The notes beneath the pieces were generated by a model that ran no database searches, had not been told where the DNA came from, and worked only from the letters and a program-made list of their open reading frames with translations. A stretch of 64,000 nt of DNA from Heptranchias perlo (taxonomy: Eukaryota): the NCBI RefSeq assembly GCF_035084215.1, contig NW_027139264.1:186001-250000 (forward strand), read 5' to 3'. This document shows, piece after piece, positions 7,411 to 51,004 of the stretch. Made by a program: the position numbers and the translations under genes. Position 1 is the stretch's first letter; every line of letters starts with the position of its first letter.

Positions 7411-7555
7411 CTGGAGTGTCAGCCCAGATTATGCGCTGAAATCTCTGGAGTGGGGCCTGAAACCACGACCTTCTTACTCTCACCTCTGGTTCAGAAGGTT
7501 GTGGGTTCAAGACCCACTCCAGAGACTGGAGCAGAAAATCTCGGCTGGCACTCCC

Positions 7556-8080
7556 AGTGCAGCACTGAGGGAGGGGCAGCACTGAGGGAGGGGCAGCACT
7601 GAGGGAGGGGCAGCACTGAGGGAGGGGCAGCACTGAGGGAGGGGCAGCACTGTGGGAGGGGCAGCACTGAGGGAGGGGCAGCACTGAGGGAGGGGCAGGA
7701 CTGTGGGAGGGGCAGCACTGAGGGTGGGGCAGCACTGAGGGAGGGGCAGCACTGAGGGAGCGCAGCACTGTGGGAGGGGCAGCACTGAGGGAGGGGCAGC
7801 ACTGAGGGAGGGGCAGCACTGAGGGAGCGCAGCACTGAGGGAGGGGCAGCACTGAGGGAGGGGCAGCACTGTGGGAGGGGGGCAGCACTGAGGGAGGAGC
7901 AGCACTGAGGGAGGGGCAGCACTGAGGGAGTGCAGCACTGAGGGAGGGGCAGCACTGAGGGAGGGGCAGCACTGTGGGAGGGGCAGCACTGAGGGAGGGG
8001 CAGCACTGTGGGAGGGGCAGCACTGTGGGAGGGGCAGCACTGAGGGAGGGGCAGCACTGAGGGAGGGGCAGCACTGAGGG
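7556..8080. repeat. 17-18-bp G-rich minisatellite
   Basis: Unit GCAGCACTGAGGGAGGG(G), following a + strand SINE head. Confidence 0.95.
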
Positions 8081-8529
8081 ATTTGATGTGAGCACCTTGA
8101 ACGTTGGAATGAAATCATCGCTGCCACTTGTTTCTCCTCTTCTAAAGCTGCGTTGCCAGGGTTACTAACAAACAGATGAAATCAGGACAGGCGGGTCCAT
8201 CAAGCCTGTCCTGTCTTGGCACGGTGAAACAACACACACACACACACCATCAGCACCCTCTCCCTCCCACAGTCACACAATCTCCTGGGAGAGGCCAAAG
8301 AAAGAGGATGAAACTGAGGCCAAGTTAGGAAAGCAAACACTCTGGGAGATTCCTCTGCGACCCCCCCCCCAGGGAATCGAGGAAGGTGCAGGAGACCACA
8401 GTGTCTGATATCACTGGTCCCCATTAACCCCACACACCTCCTATAACTCGAGATACTTTCTATTGGTCGCCAGTCCCCTTTCCAACACTTGCAGTCTACA
8501 CACACACACTGTGCATGCAGGCAACTTGT

Positions 8530-10435
8530 TCATCGAATCACAGAAAGGTGACAGCACGGAAGGAGGCCATTCGGCCCATTGAGTCTGTGCTGGCTCTGTG
8601 CAAGAGCAATCCAGCTAGTCCCTCTCCCCTGCCCTATCCCTGTAGCCCTGCAAATTGTTTCCTTTCATTACTTATCCAGTTCCCTTTTGAAGGCCACGAT
8701 TGAATCTGCCTCCACCACCCCCTCGGGCCGTGCATTCCAGATCCTAACCACTCGCTGTGTAAAAAAGTTTTTCCTCAAGTCACCTTTGGTTCTTTTGCCA
8801 ATCACCTTAAATCTATGACCTCTGGTTTTTAACCCTTCCGTCAATGGGAATAGTTTCTTCATGATTTTAAACACCTCGATCAAATCTCCTCGCAACCATC
8901 TCTGTTCCAAGGAGAACAACCCCAGCCTCTCCAGTCTATCCACATAACTAAAGTCCCTCATCCCTGGAATCATTCTGGTAAATCTATTCTGCACCCTCTC
9001 CAAGGCCTTCACATCCTTCCTAAAGTGCGGTGCCCAGAACTGGACACAATACTCCCGTTGTGGCCGAACCAGTGTTTTATAAAGGTTCATCATGACTTCC
9101 ATACTTTTGTACTCTATGCCTCTATTTAAAAAGCCCAGGATCCAGGATGCTTTTTTAACCGCTTTCTCAACCTGCCCTGCTCCCTTGAATGATTTGTGCA
9201 CATATACCCCCAGATCTCTCTGTTCCTGTACCCTTTTAGAATTGTGCCCTCCAGTACCTCTTCTATATCAATTTTTAGCCCATCCAGTATCTTAACTATA
9301 TCTTCCTTTACTGAGACTCTGGCAGCATCTTCTTCCTTGGTAAAAACAGATGCAAATTACTCATTTAGTACCTTGGCCATCTCCTCTGCCTCCATGAGTA
9401 GATCTCCTTTATGGTCCCTAATCGGCCCCACCCCTCCTCTTACTACCTGTTTACTGTTTAGATGCCTGCAGAAGACTTTTGGATTCCCTTTTATGTTGGC
9501 CGCCAGTCTGTTCTCAGACTCTCTCTTTGCCCCTCTTATTTCCTTTTTCACTTCCCCTCTGAACTTTCTATATTCTGCCTGGTTCTCACTTTTATTATCA
9601 ACCTGATATCTGTCATATGCCCCTTTTTTCTGTTTCATCTTACTCTCTATCTCTTTTGTCATCCAGGGAGCTCTGGCTTTAGTTGCCCGACCTTTCCCCC
9701 TCGTGGAGACTGTACCCGAACCATCTCCTCCTTAAAGGCCGCCCACTGTTCAATTACAGTTTTGCCTGACAATCTTTGATTCCAATTTACCCGGGACCAG
9801 ATCTGTTCTCATCCCGTTGAAATTCCAGAGATCGATGACTCTCTGTGACAATCTAACCTATTGCTAAGGTTAAAGTTCAAGACAGCAGGACATAAATGGA
9901 ACCTCAACGTAACACAGCTGCTCAGGAGCATCGAAAGAGGAAGAGGCCATTCAGCCCCTCGAGCCTGCTCCACCATTCATTTATATCATGGCTAATCTGC
10001 ACCGTAACTCCATTTTCCAGCCTTTGCTTCCAATCCATCGATACCCTTACCTCACAAAAATTTAACAATCTCAGTCTTGAAAGCTCCAATGGGCCGCCAG
10101 CATCCCACAGCCTTTTGGGGGAGAGAGTTCCTGATTCCCACTCCCCTTTGTGTGATAAAGTGCTTCCTGATTTCACTCCTAAATGGCCTGGCTCTAAATC
10201 TAAGATCTTGATTCCCCCACCTGAGGAAATAGTCCCTCTGGAATTCCCTCCCTAAACCTCTCCGCCTCTCTCTCCTCCTTTAAGATGCTCCTTCAAACCT
10301 ACCTCTTTGTCCAAGCTTTTGGTCACCTGTCCTAATATCTCCTTATGTGGCTCGGTGTCAAATTTTGTTTGTCAAGTGCCTTGTGATGTTTTACTCCGTG
10401 AAAGGCGCTATATAAATGCAAGTTGTTGTTGTTGT
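8530..10435. mobile_element. CR1 fragments (-) and L2-type 3' end (+, ~10240-10435)
   Basis: LYKTLVRPQREYCVQFWAP; L2-like tail aggcgctatataaatgcaag(ttg)n. Confidence 0.8.
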
Positions 10436-10490
10436 ATGTACCCGATCGAACCCTTTTCACATTTTCAATTGACTTGAGTTGTTTTTCCAG

Positions 10491-10766
10491 GTGTTTTCTT
10501 TGTCCAGGGAATGTGTGGCTGCGAACTGAACAGCGACAACTCCACGGAGGGGTTTATAAAGTTTGGATATGACGGGGAGGACGCGTATGTTTTTGACAAG
10601 GACAGATTGAGTTGGATTGCGGTGAATCCAGAGTTCCAGACTTTAGCAGACCGGTGGAATGCGAACACCTTCATGAACAAATACTTCAAGACCCTGTTGG
10701 AAAAGGACTGTGTGAAGTGGCTGCTGATATACCTTCGGGCTGGGCGAGAAGCACTACAGAGGAAAG
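10491..10766 (+). CDS. MHC class I heavy chain, alpha2 exon
   Basis: Acceptor gtttttccag|, donor G|gtacct; 276 bp, phase 1-1. Encodes VFFVQGMCGCEL...FGYDGED...W...RWN...DCVKWLLIYL...LQRK with the C101/C164 pair, YDGxD motif, W133, W147 and W167. Confidence 0.96.
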
Positions 10767-11430
10767 GTACCTCGAGCGAGCGGGAACTGGAGGTGCCGTA
10801 CAGGCAAAGTTTATATTCCCAGTCTGTCCTGAGCCAGCTGTTCCCGGACAGGGTAGCAGTGAGGGGTGCTGCACCTGGCCTCAGTACCCCTTGGGGTGGG
10901 TGGGGTGGGGATGGGGGAGATAAGCGGGCAGGTGACCTAAATCCGATGACCTACTCAGTCTCCCCGGCTGGAAAGCCCGTGCGTGTTGACATCGGGTGAG
11001 GACGGGGTTCAACTAAATTGTAATACCCCCATGGTTGAATAGCTTCCTGGTCCTCACTGTGAAGGCTCACTCGTGAACACGAGTGAGCCTTCACAGTGCT
11101 TGTGTGCGTTACCGGAACGTGACCCGTTACATGGAATTTACAACACAGAAACAGGCCATTCGGCCCAACAGGTCTATGCCAGTGTTATTGCTGCACCCTC
11201 CCTACTTCATCTCCCCCTATCAGCATATCCTTCTATTCCTTTCTCCCTCATGTGTTTATCCAGCTTCCCCTTAAAGGCATCTGTGCTATTCGCCTCAACT
11301 ACTCCTTGTGAGAGCGAGCTCCACATTCAAACCACTCTCTGAGTTTCTCCTGAATTCCCCATTGGATTTATTAGTGACTCTCTTATATTTATGGCCCCTC
11401 GTTCTGGCCTCTGCCACAAGTGGAAACATC

Positions 11431-13099
11431 GGGGGAAAAATTTGGATGTAGCCGTTTTTGGGCGGGGGCAGCGTGATGTGCTTTACCCCGTGTCCAATGG
11501 TCCCGGCGCAGGCAGGATGCAAGTTTCGACCCACCCGAGGACCGACCTGCGATCAGCGTTCCATCCCAGGCCTTGCACCTGGAATCAATGCAATTCACAC
11601 TTTCCACCACCAGAGGGAGTCCAATCTCTTAAAGGGAGGATGTTTGTCGGAAATCTCTTAAAGGGAGCTGGTACCTGTTATTTGCTGAAAATAACAGTCT
11701 ACTGTCTGCACGGAGTCTGAACGGAGATCAGACATCGCACATGTAAAACACAAATGCAGGTCCCATCCCTATGTTTACACACTGATGAGTTATGTTAAAA
11801 CATTGAATAAAGGTTGCGCAATACTAAATCCCACATCCTCCAATCTGCACAACAGACCTCACCAATCTGCCGATCTGAGTTGGTACCAGGCCTGTGAGAG
11901 TACATGCACCAAGGTTCTCTGCTGATGCACTAGAGGCCTTGGTGCAAGAGGTGGACAGAAGGAGGGACATCCTATATCCACAGTGGGGGGAAGGGAGGGG
12001 GGGGGCAGAGACCCTCCAGACATGTACTCAAAAGCCAGTGGGAGGCAACGGGGGACGAAGTCAATGCCAGGCTCACAGCATCATGAACATGGATGCAGTG
12101 CAGGAAGAAGTTCAATGCTTTGACATGAGTGTTCAAGGTGAGTGAGGTCAACTGTCAGGTGGTGTCTCCAACCAACTGCTCCACACACTACACCCCCATC
12201 ACCCACATACCAACAAACTCTTTCCATCAGTACTCAACTCTTCCCATCAGATGCTTCCTCTCACCCTTCCACATTACCACTGTTTCAAGCCACCCACCCA
12301 CAACTCACAGGCCACACGCACTGGCAGCTATTCAACCATGACAGGCACATCACCCAGACACAGGAGAAGGTGGCGCATATCAAGAGGCAGCAAGTGGCAG
12401 TGACATTCAGCCCCTCGAGCCTGTTCCACCATTCAATGAGATCATGGTGGACCTGTGACCTAACTCCATATACCCGCCTTAGCCCCATATCCCATAATAC
12501 CCTTGGTTCACAGAAATCGATCAATCTCAGATTTAACATTCACAAGTGAGCGAGCATCAACTGCCGTCTGCAGAAGAGCGTTCCAAACATCTCCCACCCT
12601 TTGTGTGAAGAAGCATTTCCTAACTTCACTCCTGCACCTCCTGGCTCTAAATGTTTGGCTATGTCCCCGCGTCCCAGTATTCAAGTGTAGGAGACCTCCG
12701 AAAACAGTTATGAATGTCTTGGCAGCCAGAAGCAATAATCCAGCCGCTAACCTGTAAATCCTGCATGGTCCCTTTAAATAGTGCCGGTGGGGGGTTCTCC
12801 AGGAACTGTAAGACACGTTCAGATGGTCGGGGTTAAGACTGTGCGTTGAGTTGAGCGTTAAGTCCCGAAATGGTGTCTATCACTTTAAATCAGCGTTGCA
12901 CACTGATTGAAGCCATTTTCTCCCTACTTTACATGATTCCAGCGTTCGTTATCTGCGCCTGCGCTAACTCCGATACCAAGATGGCGTCTGGCACACGTCA
13001 CGCAGGAAATGTGCGTGCGCATCCGAGACGCCATCTTGGATGTCGGAGAGGCCGTCTCGCGCCGAAACAACGGGCGCTACACGGCCCTATTTAGCGCCC
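11431..13099 (+). mobile_element. PIF/Harbinger-type non-autonomous element with Myb/SANT-like remnant
   Basis: ATC target duplication (11428-11430 / 13100-13102) inside a CR1 3' fragment; GGG..AAAT..TGTAGC imperfect TIRs; PRFSADALEALVQEV...WMQCRKKFN remnant at ~11900-12130; internal CR1 fragment ~12405-12680. Confidence 0.7.
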
Positions 13100-13310
13100 A
13101 TCTTCCCTACGTCTATCCTATCAAACCCTTTCATAATCTTAACGACCTCTATCAGGTGACCCCTCAGCTGAACTCCGGTGAACTCCAGCTGTCTCTCAGC
13201 ATCAGTCATCTGCCTTCAGGCCGAGAAAATTGATGGTGGTGGGCGGGGTAGAAATGAAGGCAAAAGAAGAGAACTTGTCACCGATTGTACTCTTTGTTTA
13301 AATCTCTCAG

Positions 13311-13583
13311 TCGCCCCTGAGGTGTTTATTGGGAAGAGGAGTGACGGGGACAGAGTGCTAAGGGTCTCCTGCCTTGTGTCGGGGTTCTACCCCTGGGCCA
13401 TCGAGGTGACTTGGTTGGGGAATGGCGAGGAGATCGCTGACATTGAATCCAGTGACGTGCTGCCCAACCAGGATATGACCTATCGGGTACTGAAAACGAT
13501 CGAGCTGAGTGGAGACGACAGGAAGAGCTACTCCTGTCATATCGAGCACGCCAGCCTCCTGCGGGGGATCAACGTACCCTGGG
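13311..13583 (+). CDS. MHC class I heavy chain, alpha3 (Ig C1-set) exon
   Basis: Acceptor aatctctcag|, donor G|gtgagt; 273 bp. Encodes VAPEVFI...SCLVSGFYPWAIEVTW...LPNQDMTY...YSCHIEHASL...VPW with C1-set motifs C-x3-GFYP, W and YxCxxxH. Confidence 0.96.
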
Positions 13584-13719
13584 GTGAGTGGCAAATCGGG
13601 GGGGGGGGCTCAGGGTCTTTCCCTGTGTCTCGGGGGGGCCGCGAGGTACTTCCTGGAACTCTGGGTCCTTCCCCGATTCTCGGGAGGGCCGCAGGGCTTT
13701 TCCCCGTGTCTTGGGGGCC

Positions 13720-20740: not shown

Positions 20741-21279
20741 TTACAGTTTCAAATGACGCCGTTGAAAAGAGGTTCCGTGTTTCTCCTACTTTTGTTCAAC
20801 CAAGGATTAAAGAAAGGGAACAGTTTGTCTTTGAACGTGTGAGTGAAAAAGTGCAGAGATGGAACATGTCATCAGCATTGTAAAAGGACACCTGTCCTCC
20901 CTCATAGACCCTGATCTTCCTGGGCTTGGTTGTTAGTTTGAGGACAGTGGAGGGTGAGGTCAGAGCCCCTTCGATGTGCTCGTACCTCTGACAGATGGTC
21001 CACGACCCAATCGAGGGTCAGCGTGATCTGCCCCTTCCTGTTGGCCGTCTCCTGGGCCAGTCCCAAGTCCCAGTCGGTCTTGTTGGCCGCCTCCATCTCC
21101 CAGTAGTGATTCCCTGAGGTCAATCCCTGGCTGCTCAGAACGCAGGTGCACTGCTCATACCCCTGGCAGACGTTGTTTAGGTTATTGGCTCAGATCATTG
21201 GCGTCCACCATGGTCAGGTCCTCAGGTACTACAAGCCTGGACTGCCCGGTTCTGGGATCGAGAGTGATCAGAGCCAGCA
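20741..21279 (-). pseudogene. TRIM paralogue pseudogene, B30.2 exon
   Basis: LITLDPRT...VLSSQGLTSGNHYWEMEAANKTDWDLGLA...[14 protein letters not shown]...KLFPFFNP...RHLKL*; same acceptor phase as the intact exon 6; several frameshifts and deletions. Confidence 0.9.
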
Positions 21280-22720: not shown

Positions 22721-23484
22721 AGACTTGTTTTTATGTTCACTGTAATGACCTCACGTATTAGATACACATTGAATGAATGATTTCACTTCATCCTTAAAGG
22801 AGATCATGTCCGGCTTTATAATAAAAATACAAATGAGTCTCCGTGTGCAGAGTTTATCGAAGTTTGATCCTTGTGCATGTCTCTCCAGTTGGTTGCGGCA
22901 TTGAAGGGGGGTGGGGGCGGTGGTATTTTCGGACTCCCTGCTCCAGCGATGGGACCTCACCCCCAGAGGGCAGTTTATCAGTAAATAGTCGGCCCACTGC
23001 CCGTGATTTTCCATTCATTAATGGCAATGGACCAAGAATTGTGGGCACCTCCAATGATCCACACACTGTGTGCAAGGCTCTGCCAGTGGCCCAGGGCCCC
23101 GATAATCTCAGCTCAACAGGTCTACGTTCCTTCAGAGCGTTGGGTAGCTCAGCTGGTTGAGAGCTGGACGAAGGGGTTAAGGGTCCCAGGTTTGAATCCC
23201 AACAACGTCCACTCAGCCTTTCAACTGTCTGAGGTTCATGAAGTGAATACCATATTGCAGGGCGTAGGGAGAAATCCAGAGACTGCTCGCAGTCCTTCCC
23301 ATTGCTAATGGGGCTGCCCCAGACGGCCCTGACTCCTCAGTAATAGGTATGGGGATGACCAGCTGATTAAAACAGACCAAGGATGGAACCTGCAATCTTC
23401 ATCTGGGGCTCAACCACCTATTTCATAAACTCACTGTGTCATCAGAACAGCTGCAGACAACAGAGATAACATCAAACCTCACAT

Positions 23485-26400
23485 GGTAAATCTATCGGTG
23501 TTCACCGAGAGAGGGGATTAGGGTAAATCTATCGGTGTTCACCGAGAGAGGGGATTAGGGTAAATCTATCAGTGTTTACCGAGAGAGGGGATTAGGGTAA
23601 ATCTATCGGTGTTCACCGAGAGAGGGGATTAGGGTAAATCTATCGGTGTTCACCGAGAGAGGGGATTGGGGTAAATCTATCGGTGTTTACCGAGAGAGGG
23701 GATTAGGGTAAATCTATCGGTGTTCACCGAGAGAGGGGATTAGGGTAAATCTATCGGTGTTCACCGAGAGAGGGGATTAGGGTAAATCTATCGGTGTTCA
23801 CCGAGAGAGGGGATTAGGGTAAATCTATCGGTGTTTACAGAGAGAGGGGATTAGGGTAAATCTATCGGTGTTTACAGAGAGAGGGGATTAGGGTAAATCT
23901 ATCAGTGTTTACAGAGAGAGGGGATTAGGGGAAATCTATCGGTGTTCACCGAGAGAGGGGATTAGGGTAAATCTATCGGTGTTCACCAGGAGAGAGGGGA
24001 TTAGGGTAAATCTATCGGTGTTTACCGAGAGAGGGGTTTGGGGTAAATCTATCGGTGTTTACCGAGAGAGGGGATTAGGGTAAATCTATTGGTGTTCACC
24101 GAGAGAGGGGATTAGGGTAAATCTATCGGTGTTCACCAGGAGAGAGGGGATTAGGGTAAATCTATCGGTGTTTACCGAGAGAGGGGTTTGGGGTAAATCT
24201 ATCGGTGTTTACCGAGAGAGGGGATTGGGGTAAATCTATCGGTGTTGACCAGGAGAGAGGGGATTTGGGTCAATCTATCGGTGTTTACCGAGAGAGGGGA
24301 TTAGGGTAAATCTATCAATGTTTACCGAGAGAGGGGAATGGGGTAAATCTATCAGTGTTTACCGAGAGAGGGGATTGGGGTAAATCTACCGGTGTTCACC
24401 GAGAGAGGGGATTAGGGTAAATCTATCAGTGTTTACCGAGAGAGGGGATTAGGGTAAAACTATCAGTGTTTACCGAGAGAGGGGATTAGGGTAAATCTAT
24501 CGGTGTTCACCGAGAGAGGGGATTGGGGTAAATCTATCGGTGTTCACTGAGAGAGGGGATTAGGGTAAATCTATCGGTGTTCACCGAGAGAGGGGATTAG
24601 GTTAAATCTATCGGTGTTTACCGAGAGAGGGGATTAGGGTAAATCTATCGGTGTTCACCGAGAGAGGGGATTAGGGTAACTCTATCGGTGTTCACCGAGA
24701 GAGGGGATTAGGGTAAATCTATCGGTGTTCACCGAGAGAGGGGATTAGGGTAAATCTATCGGTGTTCACCGAGAGAGGGGATTAGGGTAAATCTATCGGT
24801 GTTCACCGAGAGAGGGGATTAGGATCAATCTATCGGTGTTCACCGAGAGAGGGGATTAGGGTAAATCTATCGGTGTTAACCGAGAGAGGGGAATAGGGTC
24901 AATCTATCGGTGTTCACCGAGAGAGGGGATTAGGGTAAATCTATCGGTGTTTACTGAGAGAGGGGATTAGGGTAAATCTATCGGTGTTCAGCGAGAGAGG
25001 GGATTAGGGTAAATCTATTGGTGTTTACCGAGAGAGGGGATTAGGGTAAATCTAATGGTGTTCACCGAGAGAGTGGATTAGGGTAAATCTATCGGTGTTT
25101 ACCAGGAGAGGGGATTAGGGTAAATCTATCGGTGTTCACCAGGAGAGAGGGGATTGGGGTAAATCTATCGGTGTTCACCAGGAGAGAGGGGATTAGGGTA
25201 AATCAATCGGTGTTTACTGAGAGAGGGGATTAGGGTAAATCTATCGGTGTTCACCGAGAGAGGGGATTAGGGTAAATCTATCGGTGTTCACCGAGAGAGG
25301 GGATTAGGGTAAATCTATCGGTGTTCACCAGGAGAGAGGGGATTAGTGTAAATCTATCGGTGTTTACCGAGAGAGGGGATTAGGGTAAATCTATCGGTGT
25401 TCACCAGGAGAGAGGGGATTAGGGTAAATCTATCGGTGTTTACCGAGAGAGGGGATTGGGGTAAATCTATCGGTGTTTACCGAGAGAGGGGATTAGGGTA
25501 AATCTATCGGTGTTTACCGAGAGAGGGGATTGGGGTAAATCTATCGGTGTTCACCAGGAGAGAGGGGATTAGGGTAAATCTATCGGTGTTTACCGAGAGA
25601 GGGGATTAGGGTAAATCTATCGGTGTTTACCGAGAGAGGGGATTAGGGTAAATCTATCGGTGTTTACCAGGAGAGAGGGGATTAGGGTAAATCTATCGGT
25701 GTTTACCGAGAGAGGGGATTGGGGTAAATCTATCGGTGTTTACCGAGAGAGGGGATTAGGGTAAATCTATCGGTGTTTACCGAGAGAGGGGATTAGGGTA
25801 AATCTATCGGTGTTTACCAAGAGAGGGGATTAAGGTAAATCTATCGGTGTTTACCGAGAGAGGGGATTAGGGTAAATCTATCGGTGTTTACCAAGAGAGG
25901 GGATTAAGGTAAATCTATCGGTGTTTACCGAGAGAGGGGATTAGGGTAAATCTATTGGTGTTTACCGAGAGAGGGGATTAGGGTAAATCTATCGGTGTTT
26001 ACCAGGAGAGAGGGGATTAGGGTAAATCTATCGGTGATACCGAGAGAGGGGATTGGGGTAAATCTATCGGTGTTTACCAGGAGAGAGGGGATTGGGGTAA
26101 ATCTATCGGTGTTTACCGAGAGAGGGGATTAGGGTAAATCTATCGGTGTTTACCGAGAGAGGGGATTAGGGTTAATCTATCAGTCTTCACCGAGAGAGGG
26201 GATTAGGGTAAATCTATCGGTGTTTACCGAGAGAGGGGATTAGGGTAAATCTATCGGTGTTTACTGAGAGAGGGGATTAGGGTAAATCTATCGGTGTTCA
26301 CCGAGAGAGGGGATTAGGGTAAATCTATCGGTGTTTACCGAGAGAGGGGATTGGGGTAAATCTATCGGTGTTCACCGAGAGAGGGGATTAGGGTAAATCT

Positions 26401-29400
26401 ATCGGTGTTTACCGAGAGAGGGGATTAGGGTCAATCTATCGGTGTTTACCAGGAGAGGGGATTAGGGTAAATCTATCGATGTTTACCGAGAGAGGGGATT
26501 AGTGTAAATCTATCGGTGTTTACCAGGAGAGGGGATTAGGGTAAATCTATCGATGTTTACCGAGAGAGGGGATTAGGGTAAATCTATCAGTGTTTACCGA
26601 GAGAGGGGATTAGGGTAAATCTATCGGTGTTTACCGAGAGAGGGGATTAGGGTAAATCTATCGGTGTTTACCAGGAGAGGGGATTAGGGTAAATCTATCG
26701 ATGTTTACCGAGAGAGGGGATTAGGGTAAATCTATCGGTGTTTACCAGGAGAGGGGATTAGGGTGAATCTATCGGTGTTTACCGAGAGAGGGGATTAGGG
26801 TAAATCTGTCAGTGTTCACCGAGAGAGGGGATTAGGGTAAATCTGTCGGTGTTTACCGAGAGAGGGGATTACGGTAAATCTATCGGTGTTTACCGAGAGA
26901 GGGGATTAGGGTAAATCTATCGGTGTTCACCGAGAGAGGGGATTAGGGTAAATCTATCGGTGTTCACCAGGAGAGAGGGGATTAGGGTCAATCTATCGGT
27001 GTTTAAGAGGAGAGAGGGGATTAGGGTAAATCTATCGGTGTTTACCGAGAGAGGGGATTAGGGTCTATCTATCGGTGTTTACCGAGAGAGGGGATTAGGG
27101 TAAATCTATCAATGTTTACCGAGAGAGGGGATTGGGGTAAATCTATCGGTGTTTAACAGGAGAGAGGGGATTAGGGTAAATCTATCGGTGTTTACCGAGA
27201 GAGGGGATTAGGGGAAATCTATCGGTGTTCACCGAGAGAGGGGATTAGGGTAAATCTATCGGTGTTCACCAGGAGAGAGGGGATTAGGGTAAATCTATCG
27301 GTGTTTACCGAGAGAGGGGTTTGGGGTAAATCTATCGGTGTTTACCGAGAGAGGGGATTAGGGTAAATCTATTGGTGTTCACCGAGAGAGGGGATTAGGG
27401 TAAATCTATCGGTGTTCACCAGGAGAGAGGGGATTAGGGTAAATCTATCGGTGTTTACCGAGAGAGGGGTTTGGGGTAAATCTATCGGTGTTTACCGAGA
27501 GAGGGGATTGGGGTAAATCTATCGGTGTTGACCAGGAGAGAGGGGATTTGGGTCAATCTATCGGTGTTTACCGAGAGAGGGGATTAGGGTAAATCTATCA
27601 ATGTTTACCGAGAGAGGGGAATGGGGTAAATCTATCAGTGTTTACCGAGAGAGGGGATTGGGGTAAATCTACCGGTGTTCACCGAGAGAGGGGATTAGGG
27701 TAAATCTATCAGTGTTTACCGAGAGAGGGGATTAGGGTAAAACTATCAGTGTTTACCGAGAGAGGGGATTAGGGTAAATCTATCGGTGTTCACCGAGAGA
27801 GGGGATTGGGGTAAATCTATCGGTGTTCACTGAGAGAGGGGATTAGGGTAAATCTATCGGTGTTCACCGAGAGAGGGGATTAGGTTAAATCTATCGGTGT
27901 TTACCGAGAGAGGGGATTAGGGTAAATCTATCGGTGTTCACCGAGAGAGGGGATTAGGGTAACTCTATCGGTGTTCACCGAGAGAGGGGATTAGGGTAAA
28001 TCTATCGGTGTTCACCGAGAGAGGGGATTAGGGTAAATCTATCGGTGTTCACCGAGAGAGGGGATTAGGGTAAATCTATCGGTGTTCACCGAGAGAGGGG
28101 ATTAGGATCAATCTATCGGTGTTCACCGAGAGAGGGGATTAGGGTAAATCTATCGGTGTTAACCGAGAGAGGGGAATAGGGTCAATCTATCGGTGTTCAC
28201 CGAGAGAGGGGATTAGGGTAAATCTATCGGTGTTTACTGAGAGAGGGGATTAGGGTAAATCTATCGGTGTTCAGCGAGAGAGGGGATTAGGGTAAATCTA
28301 TTGGTGTTTACCGAGAGAGGGGATTAGGGTAAATCTAATGGTGTTCACCGAGAGAGTGGATTAGGGTAAATCTATCGGTGTTTACCAGGAGAGGGGATTA
28401 GGGTAAATCTATCGGTGTTCACCAGGAGAGAGGGGATTGGGGTAAATCTATCGGTGTTCACCAGGAGAGAGGGGATTAGGGTAAATCAATCGGTGTTTAC
28501 TGAGAGAGGGGATTAGGGTAAATCTATCGGTGTTCACCGAGAGAGGGGATTAGGGTAAAACTATCGGTGTTCACCGAGAGAGGGGATTAGGGTAAATCTA
28601 TCGGTGTTCACCGAGAGAGGGGATGAGGGTAAATCTATCGGTGTTCACCAGGAGAGAGGGGATTAGTGTAAATCTATCGGTGTTTACCGAGAGAGGGGAT
28701 TAGGGTAAATCTATCGGTGTTTACCGAGAGAGGGGATTAGGGTAAATCTATCGGTGTTTACCAGGAGAGAGGGGATTAGGGTAAATCTATCGGTGTTTAC
28801 CGAGAGAGGGGATTGGGGTAAATCTATCGGTGTTTACCGAGAGAGGGGATTAGGGTAAATCTATTGGTGTTTACCAGGAGAGAGGGGATTAGGGTAAATC
28901 TATCGGTGTTTACCGAGAGAGGGGATTGGGGTAAATCTATCGGTGTTTACCAGGAGAGAGGGGATTGGGGTAAATCTATCGGTGTTTACCGAGAGAGGGG
29001 ATTAGGGTAAATCTATCGGTGTTTACCGAGCGAGGGGATTAGGGTTAATCTATCAGTCTTCACCGAGAGAGGGGATTAGGGTAAATCTATCGGTGTTTAC
29101 CGAGAGAGGGGATTAGGGTAAATCTATCGGTGTTTACTGAGAGAGGGGATTAGGGTAAATCTATCGGTGTTCACCGAGAGAGGGGATTAGGGTAAATCTA
29201 TCGGTGTTTACCGAGAGAGGGGATTGGGGTAAATCTATCGGTGTTCACCGAGAGAGGGGATTAGGGTAAATCTATCGGTGTTTACCGAGAGAGGGGATTA
29301 GGGTCAATCTATCGGTGTTTACCAGGAGAGGGGATTAGGGTAAATCTATCGATGTTTACCGAGAGAGGGGATTAGTGTAAATCGATCGGTGTTTACCAGG

Positions 29401-32400
29401 AGAGGGGATTAGGGTAAATCTATCGATGTTTACCGAGAGAGGGGATTAGGGTAAATCTATCAGTGTTTACCGAGAGAGGGGATTAGGGTAAATCTATCGG
29501 TGTTTACCGAGAGAGGGGATTAGGGTAAATCTATCGGTGTTTACCAGGAGAGGGGATTAGGGTAAATCTATCGATGTTTACCGAGAGAGGGGATTAGGGT
29601 AAATCTATCGGTGTTTACCAGGAGAGGGGATTAGGGTGAATCTATCGGTGTTTACCGAGAGAGGGGATTAGGGTAAATCTATCGGTGTTCACCGAGAGAG
29701 GGGATTAGGGTAAATCTGTCGGTGTTTACCGAGAGAGGGGATTACGGTAAATCTATCGGTGTTTACCGAGAGAGGGGATTAGGGTAAATCTATCGGTGTT
29801 CACCGAGAGAGGGGATTAGGGTAAATCTATCGGTGTTCACCAGGAGAGAGGGGATTAGGGTAAATCTATCAGTGTTTACCAGGAGAGAGGGGATTAGGGT
29901 AAATCTATCGGTGTTTACCGAGAGAGGGGATTGGGGTAAATCTATCGGTGTTTACCGATGGAGGGGATTAAGGTCAATCTATCGGTGTTTAAGAGGAGAG
30001 AGGGGATTAGGGTAAATCTATCGGTGTTTACCGAGAGAGGGGATTAGGGTCAATCTATCGGTGTTTACCGAGAGAGGGGATTAGGGTAAATCTATCAATG
30101 TTTACCGAGAGAGGGGATTGGGGTAAATCTATCGGTGTTTAACAGGAGAGAGGGGATTAGGGTAAATCTATCGGTGTTTACCGAGAGAGGGGATTAGGGT
30201 CAATCTATCGGTGTTTACCGAGAGAGGGGATTAGGGTAAATCTGTCAATGTTTACCGAGAGAGGGGATTGGGGTAAATCTATCGGTGTTTACCGAGAGAG
30301 GGGATTGGGGTAAATCTACCGGTGCTTACCGAGAGAGGGGATTAGGGTAAATCTATCGGTGTTTACCGAGAGAGGGGATTCGGGTAAATCTATCGGTGTT
30401 TACCGAGAGAGGGGATTAGGGTAAATCTATCGGTGTTTACCAGGAGAGAGGGGATTGGGGTAAATCTATCGGTGTTTACCAGGAGAGAGGGGATTTTGGT
30501 CAATCTATCGGTGTTTACCGAGAGAGGGGATTAGGGTAAATCTATCAATGTTTACCGAGAGAGGGGAATGGGGTAAATCTATCAGTGTTTACCGAGAGAG
30601 GGGATTGGGGTAAATCTACCGGTGTTCACCGAGAGAGGGGATTAGGGTAAATCTATCAGTGTTTACCGAGAGAGGGGATTAGGGTAAAACTATCAGTGTT
30701 TACCGAGAGAGGGGATTAGGGTAAATCTATCAGTGTTTACCGAGAGAGGGGATTAGGGTAAAACTATCAGTGTTTACCGAGAGAGGGGATTAGGGTAAAT
30801 CTATCAGTGTTTACCGAGAGAGGGGATTGGGGTAAATCTATCGGTGTTTACCGAGAGAGGGGATTCTGGTAAATCTATCGGTGTTTACCGAGAGAGGGGA
30901 TTAGGGTAAATCTATCGGTGTTTACCAGGAGAGAAGGGATTAGGGTAAATCTATCGGTGTTTACCGAGAGAGGGGATTAGGGCAAATCTATCGGTGTTTA
31001 CCGAGAGAGGGGATTAGGGCAAATCTATCAGTGTTCACCAGTGGAGAGGTTTATGGTAAATCTACCAGTGTTCACCACGGGAGAGGTTTATGGTAAATCT
31101 ACTGGTGTTTACCAGGGGAGATGTTTTTTGTAAATCTACCAGTGTTCACCACGGGAGAGGTTTATGGTAAATCTACTGGTGTTTACCAGGGGAGATGTTT
31201 TTGGTAAATCTACCAGTGTTTACCAGGGGAGAGGTTTATTGTAAATCTACCAGTGTTTACCAGGGGAGAGGTTTATGGTATATCTATCGGTGCTAACTAG
31301 GAGAGTGTATTGCGGTATATCTATCGGTGTTTACCGGGAGAGTGCATTGCGGTATATCTGTTGGTGTTTACCGGGAGAGTGTATTGCGGTATATCTATTG
31401 GTGTTTCCCGGGAGAGTGCATTGCGGTATATCTGTTGGTGTTTACCGGGAGAGTGTATTGCGGTATATCTATTGGTGTTTACCGGGAGAGCAAATTGCTG
31501 TAAATCTATTGGTGTTTACCGGGAGAGTGTATTGCGGTATATCTATCGGTGTTTACCGGGAGAGTGCATTGCGGTATATCTATCGGTGTTTACCGGGAGA
31601 GTGTATTGCGGTATATCTGTTGGTGTTTACCGGGAGAGTGTATTGCGGTATATCTGTTGGTGTTTACCGGGAGAGTGTATTGCGGTATATCTATTGGTGT
31701 TTACCGGGAGAGTGTATTGCGGTATATCTGTTGGTGTTTACCGGGAGAGTGTATTGCGGTATATCTATTGGTGTTTACCGGGAGAGTGCATTGCGGTATA
31801 TCTGTTGGTGTTTACCGGGAGAGTGTATTGCGGTATATCTATTGGTGTTTACCGGGAGAGTGTATTGCGATATATCTATCAGTGTTTACCGGGAGAGTGT
31901 ATTGCGATATATCTATCGCTGTTTACCGGGAGAGTGTATTGCGGTATATTTATCGGTGTTTACCGGGAGAGTGTATTGCGGTATATCTATTGGTGTTTAC
32001 CGGGAGAGTGTATTGCGGTATATCTATTGGTGTTTACCGGGAGAGTGTATTGCGGTATATCTATCGGTGTTTACCGGGAGGGTGTATTGCGGTATATCTA
32101 TCGGTGTTTACTGGGAGAGTGTATTGCGGTATATCTATCGGTGTTTACTGGGAGAGTGTATTGCGGTATATCTATCGGTGTTTACCGGGAGAGTGTATTG
32201 CGGTATATCTATCGGTGTTTACCGGGAGAGTGTATTGCGGTATATCTATCGGTGTTTACCGGGAGAGTGTATTGCGGTATATCTATTGGTGTTTACCGGG
32301 AGAGTGTATTGCGGTATATCTATCGGTGTTTACCGGGAGAATGTATTGCGGTATATCTATCTGTGTTTACCGGGAGAGTGTATTGCGGTATATCTATCGG

Positions 32401-33340
32401 TGTTTACCGGGAGAGTGTATTGCGGTATATCTATTGGTGTTTACCGGGAGAGTGCATTGCGGTATATCTATCGGTGTTTACCGGGAGAGTGTATTGCGGT
32501 ATATCTATCGGTGTTTACCGGGAGAGTGTATTGCGGTATATCTATCGGTGTTTACCGGGAGAGTGTATTGCGGTATATCTATCGGTGTTTACCGGGAGAG
32601 TGTGTTGCGGTTTTTCTATCGGTGTTTACCGGGAGAGTGTTTTGCGGTATATCTATCGGTGTTTACCGGGAGAGTGTATTGCGGTATATCTATCGGTGTT
32701 TACCGGGAGAGTGTATTGCGGTGTCTTTATCGGTGTTTACCGGGAGAGTGTATTGCGGTATATCTATCGGTGTTTACCGGGAGAGTGTATTGCGGTATAT
32801 CTATCGGTGTTTACCGGGAGAGTGTATTGCGGTATATCTATCGGTGTTTACCGGGAGAGTGTATTGCGGTATATTTATCGGTGTTTACCGGGAGAGTGTA
32901 TTGCGGTATATTTATTGGTGTTTACCGGGAGAGTGCATTGCGGTATATCTATCGGTGTTTACCGGGAGAGTGTATTGCGGTATATCTATCGGTGTTTACC
33001 GGGAGAGTGTATTGCGGTATATCTATCGGTGTTTACCGGGAGAGTGTATTGCGGTATATCTATCGGTGTTTACCGGGAGAGTGTGTTGCTGTTTTTCTAT
33101 CGGTGTTTACCGGGAGAGTGTTTTGCGGTATATCTATCGGTGTTTACCGGGAGAGTGTATTGCGGTATATCTATCGGTGTTTACCGGGAGAGTGTATTGC
33201 GGTGTCTTTATCGGTGTTTACCGGGAGAGTGTATTGCGGTATATCTATCGGTGTTTACCGGGAGAGTGTATTGCGGTATATCTATCGGTGTTTACCGGGA
33301 GAGTGTATTGCGGTATATCTATTGGTGTTTACCTGGAGAG
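23485..33340. repeat. ~9.9-kb 37-bp satellite with two subfamilies
   Basis: Subfamily A (to ~31020): ACCGAGAGAGGGGATTAGGGTAAATCTATCGGTGTTY. Subfamily B (from ~31280): ACCGGGAGAGTGTATTGCGGTATATCTATCGGTGTTT. Intermediate units lie between them. Confidence 0.98.
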
Positions 33341-33452
33341 AGCATTTGTCGCATTTCTTTCTAGACTGTGTATTGCAGGGGTTCCCTGAACACTCCCAAG
33401 TCCAGATCACTGCTCACCACACAGTCTGTCATTTACTCTCTTTTCCTGGAAC
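33333..33452 (-). pseudogene. TRIM pseudogene, exon 5 equivalent
   Basis: ttcctcag|...VVSSDLDLGVFREPLQYTV*KEMRQMLSP|gtaaac, homologous to FRGPLLYAVWKEMKQIISP of the intact gene. The Trp codon is TAG and the 120-bp length implies a +1 frameshift. Confidence 0.85.
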
Positions 33453-33564: not shown

Positions 33565-33586
33565 CTCCGCTTCAGTCCTTTAACTC
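33565..33586 (-). pseudogene. TRIM pseudogene, exon 4 equivalent (22 bp)
   Basis: tacgcag|GAGTTAAAGGACTGAAGCGGAG|gtgagg; one base shorter than the 23-bp exon, 112 bp from the exon 5 equivalent. Confidence 0.7.
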
Positions 33587-34074
33587 CTGCGTACAATTAG
33601 AAACACCACACATCACGATTAGTAAACACGTTTACTGCACATAATCTGCCTTTTGCATTAAAGCGAAAATCGCACCTTCCCCGAAGGCCATGGATAAAGA
33701 CATCGCCATGCTGACCTGGTGGGCTCGGCTTTCTGCTCACTCAGCTCTTCACTCCCAAGGCAACAATCGGGCTCAGTGCCCTGGACTGCAGAGAAGCTGT
33801 TTACAGGAGGAGGATCAGCTGTGATATCTTCTACAGTCGAATAGCCGACTGATTCTCTCATACAAAAACTGGCCACCTGCATCAAAGTACTGGAGGGCTG
33901 CCCACAGCTGAACTGCAATGTCAGTTAGCACATTATCAAAGGGAGGGAGAAGATGAAGCTAATTATACAAACAGACATGTTTGTTTTATTGTAGAAACTC
34001 AGGGGTCGAAATTGGTCTGGGGCAGGATCGTAAATTGACAGGATCGTAAAGCGGGCAGGATTATTTAAAAAAAT

Positions 34075-42324: not shown

Positions 42325-42869
42325 CTACAGTTTGAAATGACGCAGTTTGAGAGGAGCAGTATTTTTACCCTCATCGTGCGATCCAGGATAGAAATAAGGA
42401 AAGAGTTTCTCAGTGAATGTGTGAGTGAAAGTGTAGAGATTGGACATATCATCAGCATTGTAAAATGACACCTGTCCTCCCTCATAGTCCAGGTAAACTC
42501 CGATGGTCCTGAGTTTCACACTCAGGGTCAGTGGGACCAATGGGTTTTCAATAGCTTCATATTCATTCCCATTTCTCAGCCACACAGTCCAGTATCCACG
42601 TTTAGGCCCCAGTGATATCATTCCCTTCCTGTTAACTGACTCTCTGGCCACACCCACGGCCCACTGAGTCTTGTCCCCGACCTCCACCTCCCAGTAATGT
42701 TTCCCTGATGTGAATCCCTGTGATCCCAGGACATAAGGACACAAATCGAATCTCTCCGGGTTATCGGGAAGCTGTAATTTTCTGTCATCGAGTCTCACAC
42801 TGGTCCAGTCCTCAGACAGGATGAGCTTACGATGAGCTGTGTTTGGGTCCAGGGTCAGTGAGGCTGGGA
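42325..42869 (-). CDS. TRIM exon 6: B30.2 (PRY-SPRY) domain to stop
   Basis: ttccccag|; [13 protein letters not shown]...[18 protein letters not shown]...[16 protein letters not shown]...LFPYFYP...RHFKL*. Spliced CDS is 1590 nt = 529 aa with no disablement. Confidence 0.96.
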
Positions 42870-43096
42870 CTGGGGAAATAAAAATGACATCATGTTAAAT
42901 ATTTTAGACAGAGGAAGGTGGACGGAAACAGGTTAATATCTGATATCTGGAAAACTGGGCTCGGCCCCCAGTCTATAATTTCTGTATCAGTAAATAGTGC
43001 AGACTGGGTACAGTGTACAGTTCGATATATTCCTGGACTCCAGTGTGTTCAGTGAACAGATATTACAGACCAGGCAGAGGAAATCAGTCAGCCAGT

Positions 43097-44095
43097 GGTC
43101 TCAGTCTGATCACTGTCCAGTGAACCCTGGGTCAGAGGGGTCTCAGTCTGATCACTGTCCAGTGAACCCTGGGTCAGAGGGGTCTCAGTCTGATCACTGT
43201 CCAGTGAACCCTGGGTCAGGGGGGTCTCAGTCTGATCACTGTCCAGTGAACCCTGGGTCAGGGGGGTCTCAGTCTGACCACTGTCCAGTGAACCCTGGGT
43301 CAGGGGGGTCTCAGTCTGATCACTGTCCAGTGAACCCTGGGTCAGGGGGGTCTCAGTCTGATCACTGTCCAGTGAACCCTGGGTCAGGGGGTCTCAGTCT
43401 GATCACTGTCCAGTGAACCCTGTGTCAGGGGGGTCTCAGTCTGATCACTGTCCAGTGAACCCTGGGTCAGGGGGGTCTCAGTCTGATCACTGTCCAGTGA
43501 ACCCTGGGTCAGGGGGGTCTCGGTCTGATCACTGTCCAGTGAACCCTGGGTCAGGGGGGTCTCAGTCTGATCACTGTCCAGTGAACCCTGGGTCAGGGGG
43601 GTCTCAGTCTGATCACTGTCCAGTGAACCCTGGGTCAGGGGGGGTCTCAGTCTGATCACTGTCCAGTGAACCCTGGGTCAGGGGGGGTCTCAGTCTGATC
43701 ACTGTCCAGTGAACCCTGGGTCAGGGGGGGTCTCAGTCTGATCACTGTCCAGTGAACCCTGGGTCAGAGGGGTCTCAGTCTGATCACTGTCCAGTGAACC
43801 CTGGGTCAGGGGGGTCTCAGTCTGATCACTGTCCAGTGAACCCTGGGTCAGAGGGGTCTCAGTCTGATCACTGTCCAGTGAACCCTGGGTCAGAGGGTCT
43901 CAGTCTGACCACTGTCCAGTGAACCCTGGGTCAGGGGGGTCTCAGTCTGATCACTGTCCAGTGAACCCTGGGTCAGAGGGGTCTCAGCCTGACCACTGTC
44001 CAGTGAACCCTGGGTCAGGGGGGTCTCAGTCTGATCACTGTCCAGTGAACCCTGGGTCAGAGGGGTCTCAGTCTGACCACTGTCCAGTGAACCCT
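43097..44095. repeat. 42-bp minisatellite in TRIM intron 5
   Basis: Unit GGTCTCAGTCTGATCACTGTCCAGTGAACCCTGGGTCAGRGG. Confidence 0.95.
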
Positions 44096-44322
44096 ACTGG
44101 AAAGTGCGAGTGTCTGGATTCAAATGAGAAAATGTTCTGATTCTGTCTCTACTTGAATCGCTCAATCTAAGGTCACACAAAAAGAACGGCCCCTTGAGTG
44201 AAGTACCAGAGACTGCTGCCCCAGTGATCGGTACACAACAACAGTCAGTACATTCAGGAGAGGGAGAAGAGAGCAGGAAACTCTACAGAAAGTTCACCCA
44301 AACCTGTGGAGTCGTTTCATAC

Positions 44323-44558
44323 CTGGAGAGATGATCTGTTTCATTTCCTTCCACACTGCGTAGAGTAAAGGGCCTCGAAACATGGCGTATTTCAGACTTG
44401 CAGATACCAGTATCTCTTCATCTTCATCTTCCTCTGACGATCTCTCTTGATCTTCACCTTCCTCTGATGATCTCTCTTGATCTTCACCTTCCTCTGACGA
44501 TCTCTCTTGATCTTCCCCTCTCTCTGCACCTTCTCCTCCCTCCCCTTTGTCCAGGTAC
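44323..44558 (-). CDS. TRIM exon 5 (linker 2 with acidic repeats)
   Basis: aaacag|G TAC CTG...TCT CCA G|gtatga; 236 bp, phase 2-1; YLDKGEGGEGAER(GEDQERSSEE)x3 DEDEEILVSASLKYAMFRGPLLYAVWKEMKQIISP. Confidence 0.9.
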
Positions 44559-44650
44559 CTGTTTGAATGGGATTGATTCACTCACTCACTGCTGGATACA
44601 ATCTGTGATCACAGTGTAAGACCGAGTCTGGGTTTGGATTGGGTACTCAC

Positions 44651-44673
44651 CTTTCTCCCAATCTTTTCAGTTC
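44651..44673 (-). CDS. TRIM exon 4 (23-bp micro-exon)
   Basis: tcctgcag|GAACTGAAAAGATTGGGAGAAAG|gtgagt; the typical 23-bp TRIM exon; phase matches both neighbours. Confidence 0.9.
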
Positions 44674-44769
44674 CTGCAGGACAGAGAATCAGAAACATTT
44701 TAATAAATATACCGTACTCTTTAGATTGTACATTTTAATAAATATACCGTATTATTTGGATCGTACGTT

Positions 44770-47390
44770 TTAATCATAGAATCGTTACAGCACAGAAGGA
44801 AGCCATTCGGCCCATCGAGCCCGTGCCGGCTCTTTGTAAGAACAATCCAGTTAGTCCCATTCCCCCCACTCTTTCCCCATAGCCCTGCAACTTTTTTCCC
44901 CTTCAAATATTTATCCAATTCCTTTTCGAAAGCCACGATTGAATCTGCTTCCACCACCCTATCAGGCAGCGCATTCCAAATCATAACTATTCGCTGTGTA
45001 AAAACATTTTTCCTCATGTCGCCTTTAGTTCTTTTGCCAATCACTAAATCTGTGTCCTCTGGTTCTTGGCCCTTCCACCAATGGGAACAGTTTCTCTTTA
45101 TTTACTTTATCAAAATCCTTCATGATTTTGAACACTTCTATCAAATCTCCTCTCAACCTTCTCTGCTCTCAGGAGAACAACCCCAGCTTCTCCAGTCTAT
45201 CCAGGTAACTGAAGTCCCTCTCCCCTGGAACCATTGTAGTAAATCTTTTCTGTTCCCTCTCTCAGGCCTCACATCCTTCCGAAAGTGCGGTTCCCAGAAT
45301 TGGACACAATACTCCAGTTGTGGCTGAAGCAGTGTTTTGTAAAGGTTCAACATGACTTCCTCACTTTTGTACTCTCTGCCTCTATTTATAAAGCCCAGGA
45401 TCCTGCATGCTTTTTTAACCGCTTTCTCAACCTGTCCTGCCACCTTCAAAGATTTGGGCACATATAACTCCAGGTCTCTCTGTTCCTGCACCCCCTTTAG
45501 AATTGTACCATTTAGTTCATATTGCCTCTCCTCGTTCTTCCTGCCAAAATGTATCACTTCACACTTCTCTGTGTTAAATTTCATCTGACATGTGTCCGCC
45601 CATTCCACCAGCCTGTCAATGTTCTCTTGAAGTCTATCACTATCCTCCTCACTGTTTATTACACTTCCAAGTTTTATGTCATCTGCAAATTTTGAAATTG
45701 TGCCCTGTACACCCAAGTCTAAGTATATATCAAAAAAAGCAATGGTCCTTGTACTGACCCCTGGGGAACACCACTGCACACCTTCGTCCAGTCCGAAAAA
45801 TAACCGTTCACCACTACTCTCTGTTTCCCGTCACTGAACAATTTCCTATCCATGCTGTCACTGCCCCTTTTATTCCATGGGCTTCAATTTTGCTGACAAG
45901 CCTATTATGTGGCACTTTATCAAACGCCTTTTGAAAGTCCATATATACACCAACCTTCTCTGTTACCTCATTAAAAAACTCAATCAAGTTAGTTAAACAC
46001 GATTTGCCTTTAACAAATCCGTGCTGGCTTTCCTTTATTAATCCACACTTGTCCAAGTAACTATTAATTTTGTCCCAGATTATCGTTTCTAAAAGCTTCC
46101 CCACCACCAAGGTTAAACTGACTGGCCTGTAGTTGTCGGGTTTATCCTTACACCCTTTTTTGAACAAGGGTGTAACATTTGCAATTCTCCAGTCCTCTGG
46201 CACCACCCCCGTATCTACGGATGTTTGGAAGATTTTGGCCAGTACCTCCGCAATTTCCACCCTTACTTCCCTCAGCAACCCAGGATGCATCCCATCCGGA
46301 CCGGGTAACTCATCGACTTTAAGTACTTTCTCATGTGTCCTCCATCAATTTATAGCCCATCCAGTATCTCAACTACTTCCTCTTTTACTGTGACTTTGGC
46401 AGCATCTTCTTCCTTGGTAAAGAAAGATGCAAATATTCATTTAGTACCTCAGCCATGCCCTCTGCCTCCATGTGTCCCTAATTGGCCCCACCCCTCCTTT
46501 TTCTACCCATTTCCCAATATATGCTACAGGAAATTTTTGGATTCCCTTTTACATTGGCCGTCAGTCTATTCTCATACTCTCTCTTTGCCCCTCTTATTTC
46601 CTTTTCACTTCTCCTCTGTACTTTCTATATTCAGCCTGGTTCTCACTTGTATTATCAACCTGACATCTGTCAGACACCCTTTTTCTGCTTCATCTTACTC
46701 TCTATCTCTTTCGTCATCCAGGGAGCTCTGACTTTAGTTGCCCTAACTTTCCCTCTCGTGGGAATGTACCTCTACTGTACCCGAACCATCTCCTCTTTAA
46801 AGGCCACCCATTGTTCGATTACAGTTTTGCCTGACAATCTTTGATTCCAATTTACCCAGACCAGATCCGTTCTCAACCCACTGAAATTGGCCCTCCTCCA
46901 ATTAAGTATTTTTACTCCAGTTTGCTCCTTGTCCTTTTCCATAACTAATCTAAACCTTATGATATTGTGATCACTGTTCCCTAAATGTTCCCCCACTGAC
47001 ACTTGCTCCACTTGACCCACCTCATTCTCCAGAACCAGATCCAGCAATGCCTCCTTCCTCGTTGGGCCGGAAACATACTGAGCAAGAAATTCCTCCCCCT
47101 CTTTGCCCTTTACACTATTACAATCCCAGTCTATATTGGGATAGTTGAAGTCCCCTATTATCACTACTCTACAGTTCTTGAACCTCTCTGTAATTTCCCT
47201 GCAAATTTGCTCCTCGATACCCATCCTACTATTTGGTGGCCTATCGAATACACGCAGTAGTGCACTGGCACCTCTATTGTTTCTTAACTCTATCTAACCA
47301 AATAGAGTCTGTCCTTGGCCCCACAGGGACATCCTCTCTCTCCAGCACTGCAATATTCCCCTTCATCAACACTGCCACCAACACCACTAT
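44770..47390 (-). mobile_element. CR1 LINE ORF2 remnant in TRIM intron 3
   Basis: IIGDFNYPNIDW, LGNSDH, NYRPVSLT, DFQKAFDKVPH, KFADD, 3' UTR. Confidence 0.92.
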
Positions 47391-47844
47391 TTTCTTTCCT
47401 TCCCGATGTATAATCAGTGGTTTTAGTGAAATGTGATGTGATCTGGGGAGTTTTCACTGACGGGCTCCAGTGATGTGACACCGTGTCCGTTACCCCCTGG
47501 AATACACTGGACAGGGTCTCCTCTGCTGCTGAAGACTTTGAAGGTTCACTGAGCCTTTCCTTTTATTTATGGTCTATATTTTCCCAGTAACTCAGAGCTT
47601 GTCTCTGGTCTGTGCAGCCCTGAGCTGGGGACAGTGGTGTTACACCTAACCTCAGTATCCCTTCGATAGGGAGACAACAGCCTATGTACCAGCTCCTGGA
47701 CACTTCCAGGCAGCTCTGGGGAAACATGCAGCTGTGGAGACATCAGACCAGAACAGGAATAGGCTCATTGTGATGCCCACACAGTCAAATAGCCTCCTGT
47801 TGCTCACTGTTTGTGCAATAGATGTGCAGCAGCCACAGAAATAT

Positions 47845-48140
47845 ACCCCAGCCTATCGCTGTTCCCAGGGCTAGTACCCATGAGACTGTACCCCAACATG
47901 TCTCTGTTCCCAGGGCTCGTACCCATGGGACTGTACCCCAACATGAATCTGTTCACAGGGCTAGTACCCATGGGACTGTACCCCAACATGTCTCTGTTCC
48001 CAGGGCGAGTACCCATGGGACTGTACCCCAACATGTCTCTGTTCCCAGGGCTAGTACCCATGGGACTGTACCCCAACATGTCTCTGTTCCCAGGGCTAGT
48101 ACCCATGGGACTGGACCCCAACATGTCTCTGTTCTCAGGA
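47845..48140. repeat. 45-bp tandem repeat (~6.5 copies)
   Basis: Unit GTACCCCAACATGTCTCTGTTCCCAGGGCTAGTACCCATGGGACT. Confidence 0.92.
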
Positions 48141-48249
48141 CAGAAGCGAAATGGAGCAAACTATAGGGCCTAAACTCTCAAAACCTGAATGAAGAATCCT
48201 CAGTAACCTGTGGGAGATATTCAGATGGTGAGTTCATCGGATATTTACA

Positions 48250-50924: not shown

Positions 50925-51004
50925 CTAAGATGGTGAGAGAGATCATTTAAGCTGCAGGTTGTTAAAGGGCCGCAGTGTTTAAAGGTGACGTAAGTAGGAC
51001 TTAC

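Follow-up and report, generated by a model that had tools for sequence, protein, structure and literature searches.

We analysed a 64,000-nt stretch of the genome of the shark Heptranchias perlo (contig NW_027139264.1, positions 186,001 to 250,000; hereafter the window, numbered from its first letter), in which a minus-strand TRIM pseudogene carries an array of 37-bp tandem units that starts at one of its splice donors. This array is very probably a locus-specific minisatellite that was born by a 37-base tandem duplication over the donor and affects splicing only by making the intron longer. A preliminary description of the same DNA had proposed a satellite of ~10 kb and ~265 units at an exon/donor junction, and both Tandem Repeats Finder (TRF) and unit parsing agree with that proposal. 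TRF, run on the 64-kb window, reported one tandem array at 23485-33342 with a period of 37, 264.8 copies and 93% matches. Parsing of the minus strand resolved 265 units that run from 33332, where the donor GT lies, down to 23485, the last of them being a mere 21-nt head. Unit length is 37 nt in 233 cases, 39 nt in 30 and 36 nt in one. CpG is not depleted in the array (observed/expected ratio of 1.15 over 23485-33332).

Each unit consists of a 21-nt head that begins at the donor GT and, after it, a tail of 16 nt, or of 18 nt in units of 39 nt. Set in register against the last 16 nt of the preceding exon (33333-33348, minus strand), the tail consensus matches at 11 of 16 positions in the unit subfamilies A and B and at 10 of 16 in a third one, i; sequence simulated on the local flank attains 11/16 with the best-fitting of the three tails at p 0.0007. 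The head stands at both the start and the end of the array in all 12 copies of the locus described below, which we read as the footprint of a tandem duplication that took in the end of the exon and the start of the intron. The exon end encodes QMLSP, array-free paralogues having QIISP, DFISP or NSISP at this place, and the donor position is shared with at least 16 of 17 such paralogues (the 17th is displayed out of register). The exon end is thus old coding sequence, and the transfer would have run from exon to repeat and not in the reverse direction. Collectively, the register, the head-bounded ends and the confinement of the unit to this locus uphold the birth at an exon/splice-donor junction that had been put forward.

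The exon, the array and its two flanks are present 12 times, in copies of 97-100% identity, on seven contigs that measure 76-464 kb; the array is thus not, as initially described, peculiar to one dead gene. The 12 arrays measure 3.9-26.1 kb and hold 106-701 units each, which evidences a variable copy number within one assembly and amounts to ~4,580 units in total (four false splits within an inserted element raise the raw count to 4,585). When the 3.25-Gb assembly was searched with a degenerate 21-nt core of the unit, 1,486 forward and 1,447 reverse exact matches were recovered, as compared with 0 for the reversed control, and the 12 arrays contain exactly these 1,486 + 1,447 matches (2,933/2,933). 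The locus specificity predicted for the repeat is thereby borne out, and junction birth is well supported by the finding that all core matches lie inside the pseudogene arrays. A widespread satellite or transposon-derived repeat was rejected on this count of exact matches. Among copies, the flanks differ at 0-13 of 400 nt and at 0-15 of 700 nt. The copies C1105b and C1097c have identical near flanks (0/400 and 0/700; 5 differences over ~2,150 nt) yet 459 and 701 units, respectively, and, judging from sequence, some of the 12, this pair for example, may represent alternative haplotypes at a single locus. A looped B-unit contig plus 262 nt of flank with 6 differences came from a run that bears the label of a second organism, which indicates that the array occurs beyond this individual; looped unit contigs are present in three runs other than the two DNA runs that show the exon-array junction, one of the three under another organism label. 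The array of C1101 (~402,000-408,200) is interrupted, in this copy only, by a ~6.2-kb element with long terminal repeats.

Along the minus strand of the window, the units form a B block of 55 units next to the exon (31298-33332; the 9-mer-bearing subfamily discussed below), an i block of seven (31039-31297) and an A block of 203, the 39-nt variants and the terminal partial unit among them (23485-31038). The order of the blocks (B, seven odd units, A) is as the preliminary description gave it, but the seven are not the intermediates it took them for: consensus distances of 6 between B and A, 10 between B and i and 8 between i and A mark i as a third subfamily. These relations are read from consensus distances, the 16 informative positions being insufficient to root a tree of units. 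Neither do units diverge with distance from the exon, as had been claimed. Tails match the exon end at 10.9/16 in B and at 10.7/16 in A (Spearman rho -0.06, p 0.31), with no trend within A and a weak opposite one within B (rho -0.28, p 0.04). Heads are nearer to unit 0 in B (19.8/21) than in A (18.2/21), unit 0 itself being a B unit. Furthermore, B-i-A blocks recur several times in 5 of the 12 arrays (C1105a, C1105c, C1424, C1486a and C1486b). With equal tail match in A and B, and B blocks returning downstream in these five arrays, a gradient from the exon was rejected. The exon-end text and an exonic 9-mer at 33368-33376 (minus strand) are present as originally quoted. This 9-mer, out of register by 28 nt, falls on the Q-Y-T codons that the family conserves and is common to the exon and B units only; exact in just 43 of the 265 units, it is a marker of subfamily B and not, as believed, a part of every unit. 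A 35-unit run at 27233-28537 (minus strand) is duplicated exactly at 23950-25254, 88 units further on, and represents either a recent block duplication or an assembly error. At the B-to-i boundary, C1424 and the C1105 copy at 247 kb share an identical odd unit of 158 nt with ~120 nt of unrelated sequence.

We therefore propose a course of events in which a founding tandem duplication would have joined the last 16 exon bases to the first 21 intron bases, and slippage and unequal exchange would have expanded the duplicate. Three subfamilies would have formed and then been shuffled in blocks, before segmental duplication spread the array together with a block of major histocompatibility complex (MHC) class I and TRIM genes. 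Since lesions and array are shared by 12 of 12 copies, array birth and gene death probably both predate this block amplification.

The host gene is dead in all copies. The exon abutting the array is a 120-nt remnant of the TRIM exon that precedes the PRY-SPRY exon (33333-33452, minus strand); in this copy it is interrupted by in-frame stops, at 33433-33435 and at 33361-33363. On the same strand lie a short-exon remnant of 22 nt at 33565-33586 (23 nt in an intact TRIM nearby) and, 2.2 kb beyond the far end of the array, the pseudogene's frameshifted PRY-SPRY exon at 20742-21279. The stop at 33361-33363, the one noticed first, is a tryptophan codon in 6 of the 12 copies; 12/12 share the PRY-SPRY frameshifts and have at least one stop within the pair of small exons. 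No RING, B-box or coiled-coil exon of the pseudogene was detected upstream, either in the window or within 5 kb upstream of the other copies. With broken frames and upstream exons undetected, the array-bearing gene is not a functional RING/B-box/coiled-coil/PRY-SPRY TRIM, and no protein is affected by the array. Its intron spans 12,053 nt, of which 2,205 nt are array-free. Probable RNA contigs cover 33640-34050, upstream of the small exons, at a depth of 5-118, and several of them end near a donor-like site at 33675. A suspected coiled-coil exon remnant at ~33676-33912 gave no match by tblastn with 120 proteins or with a 74-sequence profile; this stretch may be a decayed coiled-coil exon.

Splicing across the array is indicated by one 215-nt contig (depth 2.7) of the probable RNA run X5, in which the exon from 33431 is followed by 114 nt starting after the AG at 23419-23418. 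This cryptic acceptor (23417-23419, minus strand) is located 67 nt past the array, and the joint is a GT...AG one at the first, most upstream donor. The spliced frame stops after two codons and the product is non-coding. The alleles of the contig, as we infer, fit only C1105b or C1097c (the second difference is not displayed), so that the skipped intron is likely 17.1 or 26.1 kb long. In both copies the exon ends as CCG/GTAAGC (the slash marking the exon-intron boundary), and the usual CAG junction comes one unit later; most simply, one unit would have been inserted at the exon end, and the donor used would then be repeat-derived. In DNA runs X1 and X2, the exon continues into the array. A junction of a unit to mid-exon in X1 has GATC-GATC at the joint, as is typical of proximity-ligation libraries, and was judged to be an artefact of that procedure.

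The donor is reiterated through the units as similar, not identical, sites: at the 264 internal junctions of the window, GT is present at 256 and G/GT at 242, but AG/GT at none. The motif CTCTCCTG/GT, attributed earlier to many units, occurs at 36 of the 264, and CAG/GT at 7 of 4,573 internal junctions over the 12 copies. Functional decoy donors have no support so far, the single spliced contig, from a comparison that covered exon-side stretches, using the first donor, and this contig suggests first-donor selection over 17-26 kb of look-alike sites. As it and the precedent of human F7 (see below) would have it, the spliceosome may take the most upstream donor and ignore the hundreds behind, which would mostly be weaker too, having lost the A at -2. 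A bolder reading, which we regard as unlikely, holds that the array has encroached on its own exon in C1105b and C1097c, that a repeat-derived donor there beats ~460-700 look-alikes over 17-26 kb and that shark splice donors may be hotspots of minisatellite birth; if true, the 12 copies would constitute a natural length series for first-donor selection, on a scale far beyond F7.

Several points weigh against birth by duplication over the donor and a purely passive array. Five of the 16 tail positions disagree with the exon end, and the 9-mer of B units is improbable by chance (p 0.003; 0.014 for any of the three subfamilies) and left unexplained by plain duplication; subfamily B may have arisen through a later exchange with the exon, which would account for it. 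The core search was an exact-match pattern, blind to distant relatives of the unit. A protein search of the assembly with the exon returned 29 matches, namely the 12 copies and 17 paralogues at no more than 58%, and no array-free version of this exon; the ancestral junction is therefore unseen and the 21-nt head has no outside reference. Likewise, the 57 matches of a DNA search with the PRY-SPRY remnant comprised the 12 copies and others at no more than 91% over short pieces, with no array-free parent. As to splicing, a single contig shows the joint; it comes from one of the four probable RNA runs, which share one sample, and X6, X7 and X8 do not cover the exon; the RNA status of X5 is predicted, not on record, and its sample is that of the DNA runs. 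The comparison with run contigs covered only exon-side stretches. Finally, when donor strength is scored as the number of matches to the U1-pairing consensus, 66-68% of the internal sites of B-rich arrays reach 7/11, the first donor having 8, and by this crude count many decoys are not much weaker than the first donor.

The array might instead have been born in a live gene and helped to kill it, with decoy donors or the long intron disturbing PRY-SPRY splicing and the exons decaying afterwards. We deem this rather improbable, although the array is indeed old, as its units are 5/16 off the exon end and its subfamilies 6-10/37 apart, compared with 1-3% between block copies. In the same vein, the single spliced contig bypasses the PRY-SPRY acceptor for a cryptic one, and a VNTR (variable number tandem repeat) in human ABCA7 has a length that tracks lower expression and exon skipping (PMC5954066). 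However, splicing from the first donor persists over an array that is likely 17-26 kb long, the undetected upstream exons and the several shared PRY-SPRY frameshifts are lesions that need no array, and human genes tolerate arrays of this kind (PMC1557585). The near-absence of A at -2 would fit a weakening of decoys in a live gene, but this base is a silent proline position, and the true donors of paralogues include CTG/GT and CCG/GT.

Improbable as well, in our judgement, is that a repeat of unrelated origin inserted, or emerged, just within the intron, its resemblance to the exon end being due to chance and to later exchange at a shared CT-rich tract. A likeness of 11/16 is modest and partly low-complexity, and exchange between exon end and unit does occur, C1105b and C1097c reading as one extra unit at the exon end; such exchange could account for the 9-mer too. 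Against this stand the lack of any outside source among the 2,933 core matches, the termination of the array precisely on the 21-nt head in 12/12 copies, the family protein motif retained by the exon end and the fact that all three subfamilies are in register with it. Lastly, it is very improbable that the array is partly an assembly artefact of false duplications and over-expanded repeats on unplaced contigs, as the 35-unit stretch duplicated without difference and the nearly identical flanks of some copies (C1105b/C1097c, possibly two haplotypes) might hint, given that the exon-array junction is present in short-read contigs of two DNA runs, looped unit contigs exist in three more and most copies are 1-3% apart with distinct block orders; such artefacts could reduce the copy count and the lengths, not the existence of the array.

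Next to the pseudogene and its junction-born array, the window contains an intact TRIM of six exons encoding a 529-aa RING/B-box/coiled-coil/PRY-SPRY protein (42325-53912, minus strand). This upstream neighbour is not the parent of the pseudogene, a candidacy we rejected on 52% protein identity over 29 residues and an unrelated intron start. Its intron of 1,453 nt consists for ~1.0 kb of a different, 42-bp minisatellite (43097-44095). The earlier contrast between an intron of ~12 kb and one of 1.45 kb is hence correct in its lengths, but the neighbour, with a minisatellite of its own and no parental status, does not serve as a baseline. Its PRY-SPRY is closest (92%) to Heptranchias perlo proteins named 'zinc-binding protein A33-like'. 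With the shark genes of this A33-like/TRIM39-like type the neighbour shares the domain set and the pseudogene the family's last three exons; in contrast to them, the pseudogene is frameshifted, its upstream exons are undetected and it has no close intact parent in the assembly. The neighbour's exon before the PRY-SPRY (44323-44558, minus strand) is 236 nt long and owes its extra length to an acidic coding repeat with a 30-bp period (3.8 copies, 44413-44526) whose length seems variable among copies. Two minisatellites in introns of this gene lie clear of the donors, beginning 121 and 227 nt away, and ~15 separate minisatellite arrays of more than 150 bp are scattered across the window. Contig C42, of at least 15.9 Mb, bears many divergent TRIM genes of the same family, and the unplaced MHC class I/TRIM block may lie near it.

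On the plus strand, an MHC class I-like gene with alpha 1, alpha 2 and C1-set exons (4966-13600, approximate bounds) has been duplicated along with the pseudogene. In the assembly its alpha 2 exon is matched 12 times, with protein identities of 99-100%, and 11 of these matches lie 12-18 kb from an array; for the twelfth, on C1080, no pseudogene was found within the 70 kb examined, and a different TRIM is located there. Together with the TRIM pair, the MHC class I-like gene moves as a block that recurs at intervals of 145-180 kb along C1097 and C1105. On C1486, at 72-106 kb, no more than 25 kb separates two pseudogene copies; the PRY-SPRY exon of one is truncated, and just one of the two has an MHC class I exon in its vicinity. 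The arrays could be markers for separating loci from haplotypes in this duplicated block.

The shark array belongs to a known class of donor-reiterating junction minisatellites. It has head-to-tail units within the 10-100-bp range, a first unit that spans the exon-intron boundary and a reiterated donor, and it is locus-specific and variable. A literature search, in which most subscription journals and supplements were outside coverage, found no paper on this shark locus or array. The closest counterpart is the 37-bp VNTR of human F7 intron 7. There, the boundary between exon and intron falls within the first unit, so that the following units carry the donor on into the intron; splicing uses the most upstream donor alone, and length varies (PMC1557585). 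The shark array is alike in its junction-spanning first unit, its reiterated donor and its variable length, the equal unit length of 37 nt being a coincidence. It differs in that the F7 unit takes 4 exon and 33 intron bases and is present in 5-9 copies with identical donors in a working gene (PMC1557585), whereas the shark unit takes 16 + 21 bases and is present in 106-701 copies, with three subfamilies and donors altered at -2, in a pseudogene of a 12-copy block.

The same source lists junction-spanning units in IFI6 (6-16) intron 2, CBS intron 13, LMNB2 and PDGF intron 4, where the authentic donor is used alone or with the next two (PMC1557585). In contrast to the shark array, these have 10-26 copies and reside in single-copy working genes. 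According to its title, a CBS paper cited there ascribes to a substitution in the second repeat the prevention of alternate splicing (PMC1557585), a change comparable to the lost A at -2 in shark units. The 25-bp VNTR of human ABCA7 intron 18 is described as an array that starts at the donor GT and ranges from 12 to ~427 units and up to 10.7 kb (PMC5954066). The array of the window likewise starts at the donor GT and has a size within that range. ABCA7, however, is a working gene with measured one-unit retention and exon skipping (PMC5954066), while the shark arrays attain up to 26 kb with no protein at stake. Setting itself apart by size, subfamilies, altered donors and a multi-copy pseudogene host, the shark array takes this class beyond the few human genes in which it had been described, into a pseudogene of a shark and to a larger size, of up to ~700 units.

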